A stretch of 42,236 bases of DNA from a virus. The position numbers and the translations under genes are program-made. Shown here one piece after another: positions 1 through 39,894 of the stretch. The stretch lies in the UHGV virus genome UHGV-1360403, one strand, 5' to 3'. Numbering within the stretch: position 1 is the stretch's first letter; every line of letters begins with the position of its first letter. A model generated the notes under the pieces. It did not search any database. It was not told the DNA's origin and worked only from the letters and a program-made list of their open reading frames with translations.

Positions 1-644
1 AGTTTGGTCCAGCTCTGCCCCGGAAACTGTATCGAGTTGAACCAGCGTGAGGTAAACGCGCCGTAAGTGCGCCCGAGACGTTGCCCCTGGTCCACAAACC
101 ACGATTGTCCCCACAAATCTACCAGGCCGTTCGGTGCTGGCGTACCGGTGAGATTTATCCAGCGCCGGACATACTTATGCGCCACTTTGCCCAGCGCCGC
201 CGCGCGCTTACCACCACCGCGCAGCCGGAAGGATTTTAGCCGGGTGCTTTCATCTGGAATGACAGTACCGAACGGCCATCGTTCTCCCAATTCTTCAATC
301 AGCCAGACAAGGTTATCGTAGTTGATGGTGAACACGCTTGCGTTGCTGTTCGTCAGCGCCATAGAGCGCGCTTTGGCATTACCAATAATTGGCTGCACCT
401 CGATATTGCGCAAATGTCCCCACTTCAGTGCTTCATCCGGCCATGTGCTGGCAGCCACGCGCAGCGGCGCGAGGACCAGTGCGGGGCATGTTTCTGCCCC
501 TGCCATAAAGAGATCTTCCAGCGCAGTGAGCGTTGCCACGGTTTTACCCATTCCCATCCCCGCCCAGATGTTGCCGCGCAGGGTTTCGGTTTCGTGGTTG
601 ATAATGAGAACTTGGTAGGGGCGAGGTATATATTTTGGGGGCAT
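1..644 (-). CDS. SNF2-family helicase, N-terminal part (continues at 41486..42236 across the window junction)
   Basis: ATG at 644..642; hand translation MPPKYIPRPYQVLIINHETETLRGNIWAGMGMGKTVATL... with Walker A GMGMGKT, DExx-like IPDES and LTGTP motifs; open to position 1 with no stop. Confidence 0.85.
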   Translation of the reverse strand, partial: MPPKYIPRPYQVLIINHETETLRGNIWAGMGMGKTVATLTALEDLFMAGAETCPALVLAPLRVAASTWPDEALKWGHLRNIEVQPIIGNAKARSMALTNSNASVFTINYDNLVWLIEELGERWPFGTVIPDESTRLKSFRLRGGGKRAAALGKVAHKYVRRWINLTGTPAPNGLVDLWGQSWFVDQGQRLGRTYGAFTSRWFNSIQFPGQSWTK

Positions 645-706
645 ATAATATGGCTCCTAAACAACAAAAGGCCAATTTAGACCTTTTGTTGTTTTAAAAA
701 TGTTAT

Positions 707-1624
707 TTATAATAGTGCTGTTACTATTGCATCTTTAAAAATATTTTCTTCTTCATTTATTAAAGGTGATGACAGATGAATAATTACTTCTTTTCCTGTC
801 AATACTATTTGCTCGACTTGAAATCCTGCGTTGTGTAGTCTTTGGCGTAACTTTTCTAGTGCTGATTTTGATATACTAAATCCTTCACTCCTTATAGTAT
901 AACTGGCAACTCCATTTTTAATAATATCTACAGAGTTGTCAATTTCCTGCTGCGAGTAATTTTTCGGTGAGTCGAAAAATCTGGATTTTGTCGTTGCTGT
1001 TGCCCTAAGAGATATCAATAATGATTTGATATCTTTAATCTCAGATGCCAGATACTCAGTTTCTGATACTTCTTTCTGGTCTAGTTGTGCAACTTTGAAA
1101 GTGCCAAAATGTTTGAGGAATGTTGTGTATTCAGGATCAGTTACTGACTTTAAATATGTTTCTTTTATCTTGCTCGCAAGTCTTTCTTTGAATAAATTGA
1201 TTGATTGGTATCTTAAATCCGAAGGGTACTCTAAATGTTCAATTGATGAAATGTCAAAGCTATAAGGAGTGCGCTCGTCCTTAATAATTACGGTCGGTTT
1301 GTCAAATGCGAGACGCATTCCTAATTCAAACATTACATTAGCGTTTCGAGCACTTATATCGCAAACAACTATGGGGTTTTCATAAAGATTTTGAACAATT
1401 CGTTTTTGTATTACTGCAACATCATCATCTGAACTTACCAAATTTGCCTTGAATCCGGCATCATTTGATGCTTCACAAATAATGTCATGAACATTTCTCC
1501 AATGTCCAGTGGGATAACCTTCTATGTCCGCAATTGGCATAATAATGCCGCATATATGAGGTGGCATATTTTTGTTGTCTTTTACATCATCTTGGTTTAT
1601 TTCTTTCGTTTGTTGCTTAGCCAT
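707..1624 (-). CDS. AT-rich cargo protein (305 aa) with N-terminal TIR-like / nucleoside 2-deoxyribosyltransferase-like Rossmann domain; C-terminal domain unknown
   Basis: Markedly AT-rich relative to flanking genes; motif PIVVCDISARNANVMFELGMRLAFDKPTVII parallels ARQNVVLEMGMLLSSLGRSNVAIL in the 2354..3115 protein. Confidence 0.6.
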   Translation of the reverse strand: MAKQQTKEINQDDVKDNKNMPPHICGIIMPIADIEGYPTGHWRNVHDIICEASNDAGFKANLVSSDDDVAVIQKRIVQNLYENPIVVCDISARNANVMFELGMRLAFDKPTVIIKDERTPYSFDISSIEHLEYPSDLRYQSINLFKERLASKIKETYLKSVTDPEYTTFLKHFGTFKVAQLDQKEVSETEYLASEIKDIKSLLISLRATATTKSRFFDSPKNYSQQEIDNSVDIIKNGVASYTIRSEGFSISKSALEKLRQRLHNAGFQVEQIVLTGKEVIIHLSSPLINEEENIFKDAIVTALL

Positions 1625-1639
1625 AGCTTACACAGACTC

Positions 1640-1924
1640 CTATTGTAATTTTTTGCCTAATATACATGAAAGCTCCTTACTATCCAGTACTACCACGGTA
1701 AAGCCCAGTTTTCGCAGACGTTCATGCTCGCGCAACTGATCAGGTCGTGGTGGTTTGCCTGGTGCTTTGCATTCGACAAAGACGATGCGACCGCCGGGTA
1801 GCAGAACAATGCGATCTGGTACCGAGCGGAGACCGGGAGATACGAACTTAAAGGCAACCCCGCCAGCCTTTTTTACTTCAGCGACGAGGTGCTTTTCGAT
1901 TAGGTTTTCACGTTCATAGGCCAT
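1640..1924 (-). CDS. VRR-NUC domain nuclease
   Basis: 94 aa; AFKFVSPGLRSVPDRIVLLPGGRIVFVECKAPGK pattern typical of VRR-NUC (PD-(D/E)xK) phage proteins. Confidence 0.75.
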   Translation of the reverse strand: MAYERENLIEKHLVAEVKKAGGVAFKFVSPGLRSVPDRIVLLPGGRIVFVECKAPGKPPRPDQLREHERLRKLGFTVVVLDSKELSCILGKKLQ

Positions 1925-2118
1925 TAGCTTTCGCCTTCCTGCTTTTTGCGTTTCTTCATGCAGATAGCGCAGTTCTCAGGATGGTCATGCCATTCGTCAA
2001 TCCTGATACCTGTGAACATCCATTTTCCGCATAGTGATATGGCTTCCCCCGAATTAAAGAAATGTGCTTTTTTCGACAGGGCGGGGAACCCCCAACCTTT
2101 ATTATCGATATTAGACAT
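1924..2118 (-). CDS. Small Cys-containing hypothetical protein (64 aa)
   Basis: ORF ends where VRR-NUC gene starts; C..C/H..C..C spacing suggests a small zinc-binding protein. Confidence 0.45.
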   Translation of the reverse strand: MSNIDNKGWGFPALSKKAHFFNSGEAISLCGKWMFTGIRIDEWHDHPENCAICMKKRKKQEGES

Positions 2119-2290
2119 CGTCCACCTCCTTACGCTTTTCGCGCATGTTCTGCATCAGACAAAAATCAAACCGACGTTCGCTTTGGCCCAGACCTGCATC
2201 GCCCGGTCGTACCCGCTGGACTGTTCAAGGCGCAAAGCCTCCCGTGCAGTCCGGTAATAAAGCGGACTGTCCCGGTATTTAAATGACATA

Positions 2291-2330
2291 GGGTTTTTAT
2301 TCCCAAATAAAAAACCCCGCAATGCAGGGT
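2291..2330 (-). terminator. Intrinsic terminator-like hairpin downstream of the TIR-like gene
   Basis: Minus strand reads CCCTGCATTGCGGGG followed by TTTTTT; the plus strand also forms GGGTTTTT...AAAAACCC. Confidence 0.5.
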
Positions 2331-2353
2331 TGTAATCAACAATAAGGGGGTAA

Positions 2354-3115
2354 TTACGAGGAAGCGTTAGCTATTTGAGCTTGTGTAAATTCGAAACCAG
2401 AATTTTGTAACCGTTGCACTAGACGAGGAACTGTTTCACGTACATGGTCGTTGAAATTCAGATACAAAATCCCGTTAGCATCAGAAGGCTGTTCTAGGTG
2501 CTGTTTCTGAAGGATTGCTACATTGCTGCGCCCTAAGGACGAAAGAAGCATACCCATCTCGAGTACAACGTTCTGTCTTGCGCGGGGTTGGATTTCTGCT
2601 TCACCGGCGCGCTTTGAGTATCCCATATCATCAGGTGTCAAAAGAACAATCCCGAAACGAGTAGCAGTTTGTCCTTGCCCAATTTCACGTTCAAGCTCTT
2701 CAATAATGGTGAGTCCAGTCCCTCCCGTATTCTGCAAAATGAAATGGTCTGGTAATCCAAGTTTATGAAGGATTAGCTCAAGTTGTTCCTTTGCAGTATG
2801 GTCATGGCCGTGAACAATGAATATCTTTTTGGGAAGCTCAGATGGCTGTTCTACGGCTAGTGGTGTTGCCGTGGGGGGCGTTCCTAAATGGGACATTATT
2901 GCAGTTTCAACATTGGGACGTTCTTGAGGGTTCCCTTGAAACTGAATGGTCCGGGTGGTGTAAAGGTTAACAATTACGCCATTCGTTAAACGATAGCAGT
3001 CATAAGTCTCACGCTGTTCGTGGGAAAAATTGGTGAACCCACACTCCCTCAAAAAGTCAGGAAAAGATTCTCTCGGGTATGGATAGTTGATCGGCATTTC
3101 AGTTAGTTCCTGCAT
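2354..3115 (-). CDS. TIR-like domain protein (253 aa): novel ~100-aa N-terminal domain plus C-terminal TIR-like nucleotide-binding domain
   Basis: KIFIVHGHD...GIVLLTPDDMG...ARQNVVLEMGMLLSSLGRSNVAIL matches the 'predicted nucleotide-binding protein containing TIR-like domain' pattern; own terminator downstream; lower G+C than PolA by eye. Confidence 0.65.
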   Translation of the reverse strand: MQELTEMPINYPYPRESFPDFLRECGFTNFSHEQRETYDCYRLTNGVIVNLYTTRTIQFQGNPQERPNVETAIMSHLGTPPTATPLAVEQPSELPKKIFIVHGHDHTAKEQLELILHKLGLPDHFILQNTGGTGLTIIEELEREIGQGQTATRFGIVLLTPDDMGYSKRAGEAEIQPRARQNVVLEMGMLLSSLGRSNVAILQKQHLEQPSDANGILYLNFNDHVRETVPRLVQRLQNSGFEFTQAQIANASS

Positions 3116-3179
3116 AAGTATTGTTCCTTTAATTTACTCGAATTCAGCATGTCGCCATAGCTCGATAAGGTGAGTTATA

Positions 3180-5243
3180 TCAATCTTTTTTGTAGTGGTA
3201 CGCCTCAAAGCCGCCAGCGTTCAGCGGAATATCGGGTGCCCATTCGGGGTTAGTGGAGAGAAGCGCGGAAAGCGCTTTATCGTTGAAATCTTCTGTGTCT
3301 GGTGCTTCGGTGATCACCTCGTCGTGTACCGTTAGCACAATGCTGTAACCGGCACCCTCGATCAGCGGCATGTTTCTGGCTAGAACGTCGCGGGCGGCCG
3401 CCTGGGTGACGTTCTCCACCAGCTTTCCGCCGTAGGTTTTGAGTCGTTGCCATTTACGCGAATAAGAGTTAACACCCATGTAGGTGATATTCCCTTGTTC
3501 GATAACCGGAGACGGGTAGCATACAGCGCGTCCGGATGGTAGCTGTATGCGCAGCCACGCGCCATCACGTCGGATTTTAAGATAGCCGCAATACAATGTT
3601 TTTTGCGGTGTGGCGATTGCTGTGCGGACAGTGCGCTCCAGCTCGTACCAGAAATCGCAGGTCGCCGGGTGCGCCCTGCGCCACAGGCGCTTGAGCGAGT
3701 CACATGCGATGAATACACGCTCGGACAGGCCAAAGGTCGACTTACGCTTAACCGATTCGTCGTACCAGCTTTTTGCCTCGCGGATAACATCGCGGGGAAT
3801 GTTTGGCAGTGCGGCGTTCGCCAGCTCGTCGAGATCGAGACCGTAAACCAGAGCAAAAGTGATGAAAGCCGATACACCACCTCCATAACCCAGACCGAGT
3901 TCCATGACTTTACCGATCTGACGCATGTGTTTATCAACATCATCTGGTGCAATATCGAAAGCTTTTGCATACGCCAGTTTATATAAGTCCGGACCCGTTC
4001 CAGCGTCATACTCTCTGAATGCATTCAGTTTCCATTCTTCTCCCGCCAGCCATGCCAGCATACGGCCTTCAATGTTTGACAAGTCACTTACCACTAGTTT
4101 TTTGCCTGTTGGCGCGATAATGCAGCCACGTAACGCTGAACTGGTTAGTTCCATGATATTGTCAAACAGCAGGTCTGCACATCCGGCTTTCAGTGCTTCG
4201 ATGCCTTCGTCTATTTGTTCCTGTTTTAGTGAAGGGCGGGGAAGGTTCTGGGGCTGGAATAGCCGTCCGGCCCAACGACCGGTACGTGACGCCCCGCAGA
4301 ACTGTAGCGTACCGCGTAAGCGCCCGTCGTGGCTTACGCCTTTCATCAGTGCCTTGTATTTACTGGTGCTGGTAGTACTGGCTTGCAGGCGGATAGCCAG
4401 CAGTTCTTTCACGGCAGATGATAAATCGGGGTCGGCCATACGACGTTCCAGGGTACTGCGTTGCATGTCTGGTAGCTCCACACCGTAGGATTCAACGATG
4501 TGCTTAATCAACGCGTCCCGTTGTGTGGCTGCCTGCACTTCGCCATCAGTCATTTCCTGTGTACGCTTTGCCAGGCGCTTTTGCTCCTGGTCTACCGCTT
4601 CGATCGCAGCGCGCGCGAGTTGCATGTCCATGCAGACGCCCCGGTCGTTGATCTGCTGATCACGATGCCAGAGCGCCAGCTCTGTCCCCTGATAATTCCA
4701 CTTCGGCAGACGTTTATAGACTTCACGCATTGCTTCGATATCCAGTCCGGCGTAAGCAACAAAGCGCCGCCATTCTTCCGGATGGGTTTTACTGGTGGCC
4801 CGACGCAGTTTGCTGTTTTTCGGACGTGGCTTACAGAACAGCTGGATCAGCGCTTTACCTTCTTTGTCCTTCGCTTTGTCTTGCGGGACGCCTAGTACTT
4901 CGCAGAGTTCCCCCAGAGACCCCGGGAGACCGTGCGCCAGCGCCTGCACCATCGTGTCGCGCCAACGTTCGACTGGCGGTGCCAGTCGCGGCATTGCATA
5001 ACGCAGAACGGTGCGGTCGAAGTGAGAGTTATGGAAATAAAGCAGGGTTTCAGGGTCTGCGATTGCTTCGTATAAGCCGTGTGGAATACCACCACCGGCA
5101 GTGATATCCCACACGTTTACTGGCCCGTCGTTGATAGCCCATGCGAAAAGCATCACTTCAACGCCTTCGGCATACGCATGGGTACCGTTCGTAATAGGGA
5201 TTTCGCAATAGGTTTCCAGGTCGCCCCATAGTATATTGGACAT
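3180..5243 (-). CDS. Family A DNA polymerase (PolA-like, with 3'-5' exonuclease region)
   Basis: 687 aa; N-terminal exonuclease-like region and C-terminal polymerase region (...[14 protein letters not shown]..., ...[11 protein letters not shown]...). Confidence 0.85.
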
Positions 5244-5971: not shown

Positions 5972-6520
5972 TTAAATTAGTGCTTCAGCATCAGCACCTT
6001 CGCTGATATCGTCGAAATCGTCAGCGCTTGCCACTCCGCCGCCAGCGAATGCATCGCCGTCTCGCAGGAACTGGACTCCGCCGAGTGAGGCATTAATGCG
6101 TTTACCGAAATTATTGTCCTGTGCCCAGATATCGATAACGGCGTTTACATAGCACCCTGCATAAGGACGTCCGTCAGCCTGAATAAGTGGCGAACGATCG
6201 CGATCAAGAACAGCTGGGCGCGCTTTGTTAGCAGCATTCAGGAAGAAATTGCCGGGGAAGCCTTCATACTCTGCTTTTTCATCACCATCATGCAGGCACA
6301 GATTGAGTTTTTTCTCCAGCTGGTTATAAATGGGCTCCCACTTCTCTCCCCATTTTTCCTTCGCTACCTGCTTCATAGCTTTACGGATTTCTTCCAGTTG
6401 TGGGTGTTTGGGAGACATTAAAAATACTGCGGAGAAACGCGGATCGCCTTCGCCGTTTACAGTTTTAGCTTCAAACAGAGACGGGAAGGCCAGACGAACA
6501 TTGTTCAGCTTCAGTTTCAT
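5972..6520 (-). CDS. DUF2815-like phage ssDNA-binding protein
   Basis: N-terminus MKLKLNNVRLAFPSLFEAK and acidic C-terminal tail (DDFDDISEGADAEALI), typical of this replication-module family. Confidence 0.75.
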   Translation of the reverse strand: MKLKLNNVRLAFPSLFEAKTVNGEGDPRFSAVFLMSPKHPQLEEIRKAMKQVAKEKWGEKWEPIYNQLEKKLNLCLHDGDEKAEYEGFPGNFFLNAANKARPAVLDRDRSPLIQADGRPYAGCYVNAVIDIWAQDNNFGKRINASLGGVQFLRDGDAFAGGGVASADDFDDISEGADAEALI

Positions 6521-34788: not shown

Positions 34789-35465
34789 GCAAATACACCG
34801 AACTAATCACGAACTACCACGCCACCAAACCTAAATTTCTTGCGCATGTTGATCTGATGACCCGGCCACTTATTGATGTTGCGGCTGCCACCAGAGGGCT
34901 GATTAGTGCATTTGATATTGACTCTGCGGTTGGTGTGCAACTTGACATCCTTGGATTGTGGATCGGACGTAGCCGTGTTGTCAGCCAGCCTATCTCAGGT
35001 GTCTATTTCAGCTGGGATACCGACGGGCTTGGATATGATCAGGGGGTATGGCAGGGACCATACGATCCTGATTCAGGATACATGTATCTCAGCGATGAAA
35101 CTTATCGTGTCATTCTTAAAGCGAAGATTGCGATTAATAACTGGGACGGACGGAATGATTCGCTTCCGGCAATTCTTGACGCGGCAACAGCAGGATCCGG
35201 GCTGCGAATGCAGATAGTCGATAACCAGGACATGACGATATCGGTCTGGGTCTTTCCTGATACTGATATTTCAGATGTATCGCGTGAGTTAATTGCGGCA
35301 ATTAAACAGGGGTATCTCACAGTAAAAGCCGCCGGGGTATGGGCGGGTGGCATTGAAACACCTTCGGTGGAAACCCCATCGGAAGGCTCAAAATTTTTTG
35401 GTTTTGATATGGATAACGAATTCATCAGTGGTTTTGATGTAGGAGCATGGGGAGTATTACTCTGA
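34785..35465 (+). CDS. Baseplate/tail protein (gpI-like position)
   Basis: 226 aa, coupled to the J-like gene and preceding the tail fibre. Confidence 0.5.
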
Positions 35466-36259
35466 TGGCGAAAAATGACTTTAAAGCGTTTGCAACGGAT
35501 CGAAATGCCAATGTTATATCGCAGGAGGAATGGGAAGCGTTGCCCGCGCTTTTATCTGGATTTACAGCAGGGAAAGCCTCCAGTGCGCAAGTCAATAAGG
35601 TTATTCGGCAGGCCAGCTTTATTGCTGCAGCTCTGGCCCAGTTTGTAAGTGATAAAACGCAACGGGATGTGCTTGATAATGGTGATCTGCCCGGTTTTGT
35701 TGAATTGCTGGGATCGGGGTTTGCTGTTGAATACCTGAGCCGCAAGAATCCGTTTGGCGATATCAAATCGGACGGCACGGTGAAAACAGCTCTCGAAAAC
35801 CTTGGTTTGGGAGAAGGTGCCCCAGCTATTGGCGTTCCGTTCTTCTGGCCGTCCGCTGCAATGCCAAATTCTGTCATCGACAGCTGGTCCGGTATGGTGT
35901 TTTTGAAGTTTAACGGGGCGAAATTTTCTGCCTCTGATTACCCTGTGCTGGCGAAAGTGTTTCCTTCGCTGGTATTACCTGAAGCCCGCGGTGATTTCAT
36001 TCGTATCTGGGATGACGGGCGAGGTGCAGACGGTGGTCGCGAATTATTAAGCTGGCAGGCAGCTACAAACTTTTCTCAGTTTGCCGGGAATATAGGCGAT
36101 GGTGCGGGCCACACAATTAATTTTCATGATGGTATCGCCGGAAATCAGCCAGGATTTTCACGATTTAATTTCACCAGTAACTCTGTGGGTGATGGTGTGA
36201 ATTTTGTTGCCGTCAGACCGCGAAATATTGCATTTAACTTTCTGGTGAGGGCTAAATGA
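35447..36259 (+). CDS. Tail fibre protein (constant N-terminal part to codon 123, then variable C-terminal part Sv in the current orientation)
   Basis: 270 aa; tail-collar-like segment [41 protein letters not shown]; inverted-repeat crossover site inside at 35802-35816. Confidence 0.7.
35802..35816. repeat. Left inverted repeat of the invertible tail-fibre segment
   Basis: TTGGTTTGGGAGAAG; perfect reverse complement at 37611-37625; encodes (N)LGLGE in the fibre. Confidence 0.7.
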
Positions 36260-36852
36260 TGACCCCAATTTTTGATGAAAATGGACTGGCTACAGTGCCG
36301 GGCGATATGCGTTGTTTTTATTATGATGCTGAAACATCTGAGTATACGGGCTGGTCTGATGAATATATTAATACTGGCGTAAGTATGCCCGCCTGTTCCA
36401 CTGGAATTAACCCTGGCGAAAACATTCCGGGAAAAGTGGCTGTATTTACAGGTAAGGGATGGAGCCATGAAGAGGACCATCGCAATGAGACTGTTTACTC
36501 AATCGAAAATGGCGCAGCTGTTACAGTGGATTATATCGGTGCCATCAAAGATGGTTATGTCACGCTTTCACCGTTAACGCCATACGATAAATGGGATGGT
36601 GAGAAATGGGTGACGGATACCGAGGCACAGCATAGCGCCGCAGTAGACGCGTCAGAAGCACAGCGCCAGTCACTGATTGATGCAGCAATGGCTTCCATTA
36701 GTCTGATTCAGCTGAAATTACAAGCCGGGCGGAAACTGACGCAGGCAGAAACAACCCGGCTTAACGCTGTGCTGGATTACATTGACGCGGTGACGGCAAC
36801 AGATACCAGCACCGCGCCGGATGTCATCTGGCCTGAACTGCCGGAGGCGTAG
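36256..36852 (+). CDS. Tail fibre assembly protein (Tfa/U-like)
   Basis: C-terminal ...[26 protein letters not shown] is a typical Tfa signature. Confidence 0.75.
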
Positions 36853-37264
36853 GCCATTCAATATCTGGCGCACCGGAAGTATCGACCAGTTCCAGTGCGT
36901 CCAGATAATCCAGCCACAAATTATATTGCACCAGTTCCTCACCTTTCAGGCGACCAATCGCCGCTTTACCAGGCCATTGCTTACTGTTTATGTATTCGTT
37001 GACCTGATTAATCAATTGCTGCTTTTTCAGTTCGGCTGCGGCAATTTGTTCCTCATGAGTTGGCGGTGGAATATCAATCCATGCAGGCATTCCGTCGATG
37101 ACACCTCTGTATTTTCCTTCTGGTGCTTCCTTCATAAATTCGGCAGCAACAGTGTCGTCAATTTCGATTCCATCATCGGGCCATTCGCCGGATTCCTGAT
37201 AAGCGATTTTAAGCTCCACAGGGAAAAACGCATTTTTATCGGCACTGAAAATATATTTCTGCAT
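36824..37264 (-). CDS. Alternative tail fibre assembly protein (U'-like), inverted orientation
   Basis: C-terminal ...[29 protein letters not shown]; convergent with and overlapping the plus-strand Tfa. Confidence 0.7.
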   Translation of the reverse strand: MQKYIFSADKNAFFPVELKIAYQESGEWPDDGIEIDDTVAAEFMKEAPEGKYRGVIDGMPAWIDIPPPTHEEQIAAAELKKQQLINQVNEYINSKQWPGKAAIGRLKGEELVQYNLWLDYLDALELVDTSGAPDIEWPTPPAVQAR

Positions 37265-37266
37265 TT

Positions 37267-37625
37267 CTACCGTCCTATCGAAATATAACTGAATCTGTAT
37301 TGCTGTGAGATATCACTGGTTGCCACACGCCACGCTGAATTACTGATATGTTCAAAATTTACAGACAAAACCTGCGGGGCAGGATTCGACGGGTCTGACT
37401 GAACGGCATCAGACATAACACTGACTGAAATCATCGGCTGATTAGGGAATGGTATAGGGAAGTGTCCACTGATAAAGCGGGTCGTGTTTCCTGAAAAAGT
37501 GCCAAACTGAACAATATATCCACCTGGTAGCCTGAACCATCCCGAACCAGAAGCGAATGCTCCCATATCCGGTATCTGATTATCTCCTGTGCCCACATTC
37601 CGTTTTGCCGCTTCTCCCAAACCAA
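37267..37625 (-). CDS. Alternative tail-fibre C-terminal cassette (Sv'-like), expressed only after inversion
   Basis: Minus-strand ORF reads ...INVGLGEAAKRNVGTGDNQ... through the right inverted repeat, sharing GLGE with the fibre at the crossover; the upstream ATG (37665) is probably fortuitous. Confidence 0.55.
37611..37625. repeat. Right inverted repeat of the invertible tail-fibre segment
   Basis: CTTCTCCCAAACCAA, reverse complement of 35802-35816; flanks agree at 5 of 7 further positions. Confidence 0.7.
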
Positions 37626-37691
37626 CGTTTATGAAAATGCAGAAATAACGAGCAAATGGCATCATTCCTGCTTTTGTCAGAGGGATCCACT

Positions 37692-38006
37692 ATGCTTATT
37701 GGCTATGTACGTGTGTCAACAAATGACCAGAACACAGATCTACAACGTAATGCGCTGAACTGTGCAGGATGCGAGCTGTTTTTTGAAGACAAGATAAGCG
37801 GTACAAAGTCCGAAAGGCCGGGACTGAAAAAACTGCTCAGGACATTATCGGCAGGTGACACTCTGGTTGTCTGGAAGCTGGATCGGCTGGGGCGCAGTGT
37901 GCGGCATCTTGTCGTGCTGGTGGAGGAGTTGTGCGAACAAGGTGTTAATTTTAGTAGTTATGTTATTACAGGTGGGGGATTTCTCCCCCTTATGCAGATT
38001 TTCTAG
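37692..38006 (+). pseudogene. Serine DNA invertase (Gin/Hin/Pin/Cin family), 3'-truncated
   Basis: MLIGYVRVSTNDQNTDLQRNAL...DTLVVWKLDRLGRS...GVNF matches the catalytic domain of Gin-type invertases; similarity stops near 37952 and the ORF ends after an unrelated 17-aa tail; no C-terminal HTH. Confidence 0.75.
37974..37989. repeat. Short GC hairpin at the junction between the invertase remnant and the low-GC island
   Basis: GGGGGA-TTTC-TCCCCC. Confidence 0.4.
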
Positions 38007-38010
38007 TTAA

Positions 38011-38856
38011 CTATTGGCGAAGTGGCCATATTTTTCTGTTTTTTAAAAAACTATCTTCAACTATATAACTGCAACAATGTTCACTAAGGCCATAAAAACT
38101 AATTATTCCATATTTATGAGAAGCTATATCAGACAGTTCTGCTAATACTGTGGCAAGCCAACGAGCGATGCTAAGAGAATAGAATCTTCCCCACTTTTGA
38201 ACAATGGTATTTTGTCCAGTACGGATGGAGGCTGATATAAGGTCTTGCATAATGTTGGTACTTTCATTCATATACATGACCGTTGTATACGGTGAAAGAG
38301 TGGCATTGATAAACCTAGCATTTTCTTCAACACGTCTTTGTTCAACTGTATAATAATAATGTTTTTCAAGGATACTCTCGGCTACTTCTCCCCACCATTT
38401 ATTAATAGGTTCATTATTGGTTAAATTGGGGCTGCTTAATGAGGAGAAATTTGCGTAACGTCCCCGTCGGGCATCAGCAAAGGAATCTAAACATTCAAGT
38501 ATTTTGTAGGTAATTTTATGTGTAGGACGTGAATATCTCAGAGATAGTTGCATTTTTTTAGAAATACTATCAACCTCGTTGGTTAATTCAATGAGCTTAT
38601 GTCCAAATTTTCTTACAATATTCTCATCAGGCATTTTCCCTTTGTGTTCAATGGCATAGTGTGCAACAAGTATTAGTTTAGCAAGTCTCTCAAAACCTAC
38701 AGAAAGCCCAAAAAATGCTGTGTAATATTCACCTATTTTGTCTGCATAATTGGCTTTACCTATGGCTGTTGCCCCAGAACCAATGAGCTGTGTAACTAAA
38801 GATGCTTCTCGGCCCAGAGCGTGCCATGCTGGAATATCCCAGGGATTTTTATTCAC
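38011..38856 (-). CDS. AT-rich cargo protein (281 aa), function unknown
   Basis: Long AT-rich ORF in an AT-rich block that interrupts the invertase; R-x5-H (RYSRPTH) noted but not diagnostic. Confidence 0.55.
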   Translation of the reverse strand: MNKNPWDIPAWHALGREASLVTQLIGSGATAIGKANYADKIGEYYTAFFGLSVGFERLAKLILVAHYAIEHKGKMPDENIVRKFGHKLIELTNEVDSISKKMQLSLRYSRPTHKITYKILECLDSFADARRGRYANFSSLSSPNLTNNEPINKWWGEVAESILEKHYYYTVEQRRVEENARFINATLSPYTTVMYMNESTNIMQDLISASIRTGQNTIVQKWGRFYSLSIARWLATVLAELSDIASHKYGIISFYGLSEHCCSYIVEDSFLKNRKIWPLRQ

Positions 38857-38984
38857 TTTATTATTTTCCTTTGCTCATAAATTTAAATTGTTTGAGTATC
38901 TCATAAAATATAAGGAGATGGTTAAGGTTGTTGATCGCATATAATAGCTATTGAAAGTCAAGAACTCGGTTTTATGTTCTACCA

Positions 38985-39023
38985 CTAATTAATATATTGT
39001 GAGTTTGACAATATATTAATTAG
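38985..39023. repeat. Perfect 16-bp inverted repeat with 7-bp spacer
   Basis: CTAATTAATATATTGT-gagtttg-ACAATATATTAATTAG. Confidence 0.6.
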
Positions 39024-39157
39024 TATGATCAAACCAGCCATCAACTGATTCCTTGTATCTTTCAGAGTCTCCAGAACAAAAGCCTTAACGAATTCCTTAT
39101 TTGTGAGTGCCTTACCAAAAGCCCATTGTTGCAGGGAACGAGTATAAAACTCGCCAG

Positions 39158-39424
39158 CTACTGGAGCAGGCTACCTGATTGTCGATCGATTCCTGCGTCC
39201 ATATAGTCGATGGTCTTCTGGAGCTCTTCGATTAGGGCAATAGCTTTTGCTCGAGAAATGCATATTAGTTGATCCGGAAATTCTTGTAAGGGCCAGTTTG
39301 GTATACAGGCCATGTTATCAGTGAAGGATGCAGACAAGTAAACTTCATTGGTAACTAGGGAATAGCTTACCTCAAAATTGGTGAGTTCCGGCAAACTGCT
39401 AACGTTTGATTCTTTTCTGCGCAT
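39158..39424 (-). CDS. Hypothetical protein (88 aa) in the AT-rich island
   Basis: ORF only; no recognisable motif. Confidence 0.35.
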   Translation of the reverse strand: MRRKESNVSSLPELTNFEVSYSLVTNEVYLSASFTDNMACIPNWPLQEFPDQLICISRAKAIALIEELQKTIDYMDAGIDRQSGSLLQ

Positions 39425-39568
39425 AATATTATCCAGGACTGTAATTATGTACAGTTAATGGTCTTCAATTTCGAAGAGGGAGTCAAGGGGGAGTCTCAAA
39501 TGAACCTTTATAGAAAGGGGAGCTCTTTGTGTTGCTGAACGTATGCAAAATTTTTTTGCACCATAAAT

Positions 39569-39592
39569 TCAATAACACATTCAATAACACAT
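39569..39592. repeat. Tandem 12-bp direct repeat in an AT-rich non-coding region (candidate attP arm site)
   Basis: TCAATAACACAT x2; adjacent GCAAAATTTTTTTGC near-palindrome at 39545-39559. Confidence 0.45.
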
Positions 39593-39894
39593 TACTGCAT
39601 CACCATGAAAATAAATGTATTTTTATTTAATTTCACACATATCACAATTAATACAGCGTTTAGTAATTAGTAAAGACATTTCAATGAATTACCGTTAAAT
39701 CATTTTAAAAATCAGTAAGTTGTATCGAGTTTGTATGCTTTACTGTCATTAACTTACTGTATGTTGATCCAGTGTATTTAACCTTGATAAACTCAGTCCA
39801 GTAACACAAAGCCGCAACACATTGCATTTTGTCCCGTAGAAAAGACTTGTATGTGTGTGCTTGTTTTCTGCGCCTACGCAGATAAGGATTGAGA

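Follow-up and report, generated by a model that had tools for sequence, protein, structure and literature searches.

Inversion of a tail-fibre segment beside a truncated Pin-family invertase gene in a SEN34-like prophage of Escherichia coli

Introduction

Invertible tail-fibre segments have been described in several mobile elements, among them the P segment of e14 in E. coli K-12 with the invertase PinE, the G segment of phage Mu with Gin, and the C segment of phages P1 and P7 with Cin. These systems share the same order of elements, in which the constant part of a fibre gene is followed by two inverted cassettes with their chaperones, a crossover site and the invertase gene. In the Gin, Hin, Cin and Pin invertases, the E-helix covers approximately residues 100-137 and forms the dimer and tetramer interfaces, and the C-terminal helix-turn-helix (HTH) binds the crossover sites.

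Some segments are also inverted by enzymes of other elements. PinQ of prophage Qin inverts the P segment of e14 (PMC12529663). As reported in the citation of Kutsukake et al. (2006) given in PMC4272514, two invertases act on the H segment of Salmonella, and Fin of Fels-2 acts on hix. Moreover, invertible regions with no recombinase nearby have been documented (PMC9881135).

The locus described here lies in a 42,236-nucleotide stretch of viral DNA (UHGV-1360403), referred to below as the window. Its elements stand in the order given above and, as in the e14-type systems, a 26-bp site is located 55 bp upstream of the invertase gene, which follows immediately downstream. An earlier note on this DNA had claimed that the invertase is truncated and that the fibre segment would be frozen in its current orientation unless an invertase is supplied in trans. 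The truncation itself was already annotated in E. coli; what is added here is that the loss came about by a cargo swap, and that inversion has continued and is probably driven in trans.

The Prophage and its Tail-Fibre Switch

A SEN34-like temperate phage of 42.2 kb, which integrates at the yfhL/yfhH site of E. coli, is represented by the window in circularly permuted form. Positions up to 39649 form the right end of the prophage, which abuts yfhH, and positions from 39632 onward form the left end by yfhL; this end holds the integrase gene together with AlpA-like and SNF2 genes. The attR-side and attL-side matches overlap at 39632..39649 in an 18-bp att core (TTCACACATATCACAATT), which identifies the window as the circularised yfhL/yfhH prophage. 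Both att-side matches were found in E. coli WP3-W18-ESBL-08 and in many ST38-type genomes. The start of the window falls within an SNF2-like gene. A literature search with the matching phage records and the cargo protein accessions found nothing.

The locus appears to be a host-range switch of the standard invertible tail-fibre kind known from Mu G, P1 C and e14 P. In the current orientation, the tail fibre gene (35447..36259, plus strand) encodes 270 aa, which are constant to approximately residue 119 and then continue into a variable cassette. The left crossover site lies within this gene (35790..35815; 26 bp, CTCTCGAAAACC-TT-GGTTTGGGAGAA, central TT at 35802-35803). The right site, also of 26 bp (TTCTCCCAAACC-AA-CGTTTATGAAAA), is located at 37612..37637, 55 bp upstream of the invertase start. 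The two sites share a 20-nt inverted repeat with 95% identity, and their core, AAACC-TT-GGTTT, and crossover dinucleotide are those of the annotated cixL of P7.

The invertible segment between them (35804..37623) is approximately 1.82 kb long. It contains the expressed C-terminal cassette of the fibre (to 36259), a chaperone gene on the plus strand (36256-36852), a second chaperone gene on the minus strand (36824-37264) and an alternative C-terminal fibre cassette (37267-37665, minus strand). In Pfam searches, each fibre cassette has its own Caudo_TAP chaperone, and a Gp53-like_C cassette is present. When the segment is flipped in silico, the 270-aa fibre is replaced by an in-frame fibre of 237 aa. 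A putative recombinational (Fis) enhancer region is found at 37710..37777 (plus strand), equivalent to the enhancer annotated at nucleotides 19-86 of P7 cin. This stretch is identical to that of the full-length pinE of the E. coli DEC5B prophage, and its function as an enhancer is suggested by its position. Judged by sequence, both crossover sites, the enhancer-bearing 5' part and both fibre and chaperone cassettes are intact.

In the EHEC/EPEC lineage of the switch, the chaperone of one cassette is only a 65-aa ORF (WP_001236015.1; positions 4489-4686 of L006 from strain 97-3250 and 3733-3930 of L023 from strain 8D). One orientation in this lineage may consequently leave the fibre with no complete assembly protein.

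A Truncated Invertase Gene

The gene downstream of the right site (37692..38006, plus strand, with its TAG stop at 38004-38006) is a truncated serine DNA invertase pseudogene of 104 aa, as indicated by Pfam, phmmer, DNA alignment and the PGAP flag. Residues 3-89 match positions 2-98 of the 145-position Pfam Resolvase profile (PF00239, E 1e-28). A phmmer search of the PDB (E 3e-41) pairs residues 1-91 with the same positions of Gin chain 4m6f, which has 193 aa, and identity ends past GVNF.S. The MLIGYVRVS motif matches both Gin 4m6f and PinE residue for residue, and the Ser9 nucleophile (Gin numbering) is present. Both the e14-like PinE (184 aa) and a P2-like invertase share identity with the ORF through EQGVNFSS.

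Alignment of the DNA to the full-length pinE of DEC5B and to e14-like pinE places the breakpoint at 37959/37960. The product is composed of Pin/Gin-like residues 1-89 followed by an unrelated 15-aa tail at residues 90-104 (YVITGGGFLPLMQIF). The earlier note had given about 87 residues and a 17-aa tail; the tail is indeed unrelated and the counts were near, but alignment with e14-like and DEC5B pinE, full-length invertases of the kind it had proposed for alignment, sets the break after residue 89. The 55 nt before the break had been considered as decayed or foreign DNA on the basis of the e14-like allele of 689R6. The DEC5B allele is identical over this stretch, however, and the difference is ordinary allelic variation.

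The claim that a Gin/Hin-type reading frame had lost its C-terminal HTH was borne out. The Pfam matches of the 104-aa ORF include no HTH, and the E-helix is likewise not in the remnant, as the Pfam match ends at profile position 98 of 145 and similarity to PinE (184 aa) does not extend past residue 89. Additionally, a tblastn search with full-length PinE found no second or C-terminal piece of an invertase in the 42-kb window. PGAP describes the identical E. coli chromosomal locus as "recombinase family protein; incomplete; missing C-terminus". The truncation is thus confirmed as real and ordinary, and the status of the gene as a pseudogene was already on record through PGAP. We infer that the 104-aa remnant is inactive because both the E-helix and the HTH are missing. 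To our knowledge, there is no route by which a catalytic core without the E-helix can enter a dimer. By the same sequence comparisons, it holds that the fibre segment would not be inverted by the product of the phage's own gene.

Replacement by an AT-Rich Block

The GC content drops across the break from approximately 49%, the value for the whole window, to 36%, and the earlier note was correct in placing the break at the start of an AT-rich block, which begins at 37960. The nature of this block is seen in a pairwise alignment with the prophage of DEC5B. The two sequences are nearly identical up to 37959, share no similarity over 37960-39142 and are identical again from 39143. The 1,183-bp block (37960..39142, 36% GC) occupies the place of a 215-aa cargo ORF and of the 288 nt at the 3' end of pinE. 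Simple decay is therefore not the mechanism of the loss; the comparison with DEC5B shows a cargo swap, which the earlier note had missed. An insertion that displaced the 3' half of the gene downstream was also considered and rejected, since no 3' half is present in the window and the comparison with DEC5B is one of replacement.

At its left edge, the block contains a GC hairpin (GGGGGAGAAAUCCCCC, minus strand, 37971..37995), located just 3' of a 281-aa ORF and weak by its z score of -2.1. The GGGFLP of the invertase tail is the plus-strand, antisense reading of this hairpin. A scan of 37550-39700 for promoters and terminators found none above shuffled expectation. Beyond the block lies a conserved phage ORF of 88 aa (39158..39424, minus strand; phrog_17793, with the homologue SEN34_31), and homology to the sister prophages restarts 15 nt past its stop.

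Among 133 E. coli genomes with the right end of the phage, 44 carry the AT-rich block and the truncated invertase, and approximately 85 match the last 507 nt only. The latter group includes O55:H7 DEC5B, where pinE is full-length and is followed by the 215-aa ORF, on the opposite strand, and then by the 88-aa ORF. The same junction occurs in diverged relatives with other fibre cassettes (97-3250, PEC411 and 357900). The 5' part of the remnant, in contrast, is mosaic between lineages, being approximately 80% identical in PEC411, while the junction to the AT-rich block is identical (4444-4714 of L007 from PEC411 and 4444-4710 of L008 from 357900, compared with 37692-37959 of the window). In each of the four diverged lineages examined, the reading frame of the remnant is uninterrupted. 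Because the junction is conserved in diverged relatives while the 5' remnant is mosaic, the truncation looks like a single old event. The same pattern suggests that modules of fibre genes and invertase stub have been exchanged repeatedly by homologous recombination, with the stub serving as an anchor.

Cargo is variable in the slot between the fibre and invertase genes and the att end, a hotspot that holds the 281-aa ORF, the 215-aa ORF or, in SEN34, an acyltransferase. The 215-aa ORF of DEC5B (L012, 5308-5955, minus strand) has no NCBIfam match. Two further genomes have undergone additional rearrangement at this locus. Strain 82.0312 (NZ_CP122451.1) has the truncated invertase and three or four invertase-like loci, and its left flank fits neither orientation beyond window position 37605. 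In CAU16175 (NZ_CP047378.1), IS421 is inserted near the junction with the AT-rich block.

The Cargo Gene

The 281-aa cargo ORF (38011..38856, minus strand) within the AT-rich block is the most interesting loose end of the locus. It had no match in Pfam, PADLOC, PHROGs or NCBIfam. It has 486 homologues of approximately 280 aa, the best 120 of which share 56-74% identity and include proteins of Gamma- and Alphaproteobacteria. The fold of the protein is predicted to be HEPN-like. A conserved R-x4-6-H motif of HEPN proteins was not found: R-x3-6-H occurs only as R82-x3-H86 and R107-x5-H113. Of these residues, H86 does not vary within the family, although its spacing is non-canonical, R82 falls outside the columns with 90% conservation, and H113 is not conserved.

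Several homologues are located near defence systems. One directly follows hsdR on an island bearing an integrase, another lies between the hsdS and hsdR genes of a type I restriction-modification system, and a third is approximately 3.5 kb from a Thoeris system. A further homologue occupies a hotspot of a P2-like prophage, between replication and portal genes and beside a PvuII-type restriction-modification system. Other homologues stand in unremarkable contexts. A perfect 16-bp palindrome with a 9-nt spacer (CTAATTAATATATTGT ... ACAATATATTAATTAG) is located at 38984-39024, approximately 130 nt before the start of the 281-aa ORF, and may serve a regulator of the cargo gene as its operator.

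Inversion After Truncation

Both orientations of the segment occur next to the truncated gene. Eighteen ST38-type chromosomes carry a full-length match, of at least 99.9% identity, to an 851-nt query across the right junction and into the AT-rich block, and a query for the flipped junction matched three ST38-type genomes, 22AR0747, MSB1_6C and 1296KP, at 100%; these are counts of assemblies, which record the majority orientation only, and not rates of switching. When 22AR0747 was compared with the window flipped in silico, there were no mismatches in 6,400 nt, and the alignment breakpoints of the flipped genomes land exactly on the right site at 37612..37637. In the EHEC/EPEC lineage, the same exact inversion distinguishes 97-3250 from O111:H11 8D, with 1,216 mismatches in 11,890 nt before flipping and 3 after it. 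Inversion has occurred since the truncation in at least two lineages. The view that the fibre segment is frozen consequently fails as a general rule, given these exact inversions in two lineages and the intact cis elements. It survives in a weaker form, as the segment is probably static in most of its current hosts, though not locked in principle.

Sources of an invertase in trans were sought on chromosomes by sensitive blastn with a chimeric query, which joined the AT-rich block, to rank these genomes first, to the 3' half of pinE. An extra invertase 3' half was found on two of the three flipped ST38-type chromosomes (22AR0747 and MSB1_6C) and on one of the 18 unflipped ones (097H6). Within the sensitivity of blastn, none was detected on the other 17 unflipped chromosomes or on that of the flipped 1296KP. 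The association of an extra 3' half with the flipped state is suggestive (one-sided Fisher p = 0.041, a value that ignores the relatedness of strains). The strains 22AR0747 and MSB1_6C may be close relatives, and the association may then derive from a single event. The search of host genomes proposed in the earlier note thus gave an extra 3' half for these two flipped strains and none for the 1296KP chromosome. Its reservation that an invertase might act in trans fits the data best, with 1296KP and 097H6 as the contrary cases.

A query of only the 5' 261 nt of the invertase matched at least two loci in nearly all ST38-type chromosomes. A second 5' locus accompanied by no second 3' half, as in NZ_AP022003.1, indicates another 5'-only invertase remnant in the same ST38-type genomes. 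The phage collection contained no other predicted prophages with an invertase from the UK strains 606, 611 and 683.

Explanations for a Switch With a Truncated Enzyme

Based on these observations, it is probable that the switch, whose invertase gene was truncated by the cargo swap, is static where no Pin-family enzyme is available and is flipped by invertases from elsewhere. In one ancestor of the sub-lineage, a 1.18-kb AT-rich module consisting of the 281-aa gene and the hairpin would have recombined into the slot that runs from the invertase to the right end of the phage, and its entry would have deleted the former cargo gene along with the last 288 nt of pinE. The 104-aa product would retain the catalytic serine but, with the E-helix and HTH gone, would have no activity. 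Since the sites, the enhancer-bearing 5' region and the cassettes were left untouched, the segment would still be usable by a foreign invertase, and it may remain a substrate for any enzyme of the Pin/Gin/Cin/Hin family made elsewhere in the cell. Its orientation would be fixed in hosts that lack such an enzyme and would flip in hosts that have one. We infer that the observed flips were catalysed in trans by extra invertases.

A more elaborate version of these events is possible but doubtful. In it, the truncation would be the scar of a trade-off that persists throughout a phage lineage, in which autonomous switching was given up for a widely mobile HEPN-like gene, and the stub would allow the use of borrowed invertases, so that switching takes place only in polylysogens. 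On such a reading, a new effector of abortive infection or defence may be represented by the 281-aa family.

The remnant could alternatively have been kept for a function of its own, either as a dominant-negative or regulatory damper of co-resident invertases or as DNA that supplies the enhancer and homology for cassette swaps. The open reading frame in four of four diverged lineages, the occurrence of the junction in 44 genomes and the position of the enhancer-equivalent region inside the retained part speak for such retention. This explanation is nevertheless unlikely, since the divergence of the remnant looks like that of alleles imported from functional genes rather than like selection on a fragment, and what is known of the family offers no entry into a dimer without the E-helix.

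Inversion might also have been independent of site-specific recombination, arising from rare RecA-dependent exchange at the 20-nt inverted repeats or from artefacts of assembly. In favour are the 95% identity of these repeats and the case of 1296KP, which is flipped although no invertase 3' half was detected on its chromosome. Twenty nucleotides, however, are at or under the minimal length for efficient RecA recombination. Moreover, the inverted stretch ends at a canonical crossover site with the core of the annotated cixL, and the inversions recur in independent lineages and in finished assemblies from different laboratories. Exchange by RecA and artefact are thus very unlikely sources of the flips.

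Least credible of all is a switch that is truly frozen, with two orientations older than the truncation and an AT-block junction that spread into both by homologous recombination: the mosaic 5' remnant (approximately 80% in PEC411) with its identical junction does imply frequent recombination around the locus, but repeated transfer of exactly the segment between the 26-bp sites would be demanded, while in the ST38 type the flipped and unflipped prophages agree at 6,400 of 6,400 positions apart from the inversion, and in a second lineage, with the same pattern, 11.9 kb contain 3 differences. Overall, RecA-mediated inversion and polymorphism that predates the truncation are both less likely than flipping by invertases from elsewhere.

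Flipping by borrowed invertases would have several consequences. In annotation, the invertase gene should be treated as a pseudogene, but the adjoining fibre switch should not be considered dead. The locus would be a natural example of a host-range switch that relies on the invertases of other mobile elements. If so, the receptor specificity of the released particles would be set by the other prophages of the lysogen, which is relevant to the prediction of host range for prophages induced from ST38 and EHEC strains. In addition, the cargo slot by the invertase is a place to seek new defence genes, for which the 281-aa HEPN-like family provides a concrete candidate.

Relationship to Known Switches

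The remnant DNA is 94-99% identical to pinE alleles, and the AAACC-TT-GGTTT core places its sites with cixL. Unlike in e14, Mu and P1, the homology of the invertase ends at residue 89 of approximately 184. The switch also differs from these systems in being located in a SEN34-like, myovirus-type tail module, and its enzyme would have to come from elsewhere. A P2-like phage of E. coli O157:H43 strain T22, named 'P2' (KC618326.1; L003, 3068-3562), has an invertase annotated with 164 aa that is out of frame relative to PinE past approximately residue 130. This is apparently another damaged invertase adjoining an invertible fibre segment.

Among phages with the same module, Salmonella phage SEN34 (Brunovirus) resembles the window in its baseplate and fibre module, the 88-aa ORF, the order of the integrase and the cargo slot between fibre and att. 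It differs in having neither an invertible cassette nor an invertase, and its slot holds an acyltransferase. The prophage of DEC5B (NZ_CP038389.1) shares with the window the att site, the baseplate genes, the architecture of the switch, the 88-aa ORF and the right end, but it possesses a full-length, 184-aa pinE (WP_000904994.1) and, at the position of the window's AT-rich block with the 281-aa ORF, the 215-aa cargo ORF. The action of PinQ on the e14 segment and of Fin on hix is similar to what is proposed for the window, in that a segment is flipped by the invertase of another prophage. In both of those cases, however, the segment's own invertase is also present, whereas in the lineage of the window the enzyme encoded in cis is defective throughout.
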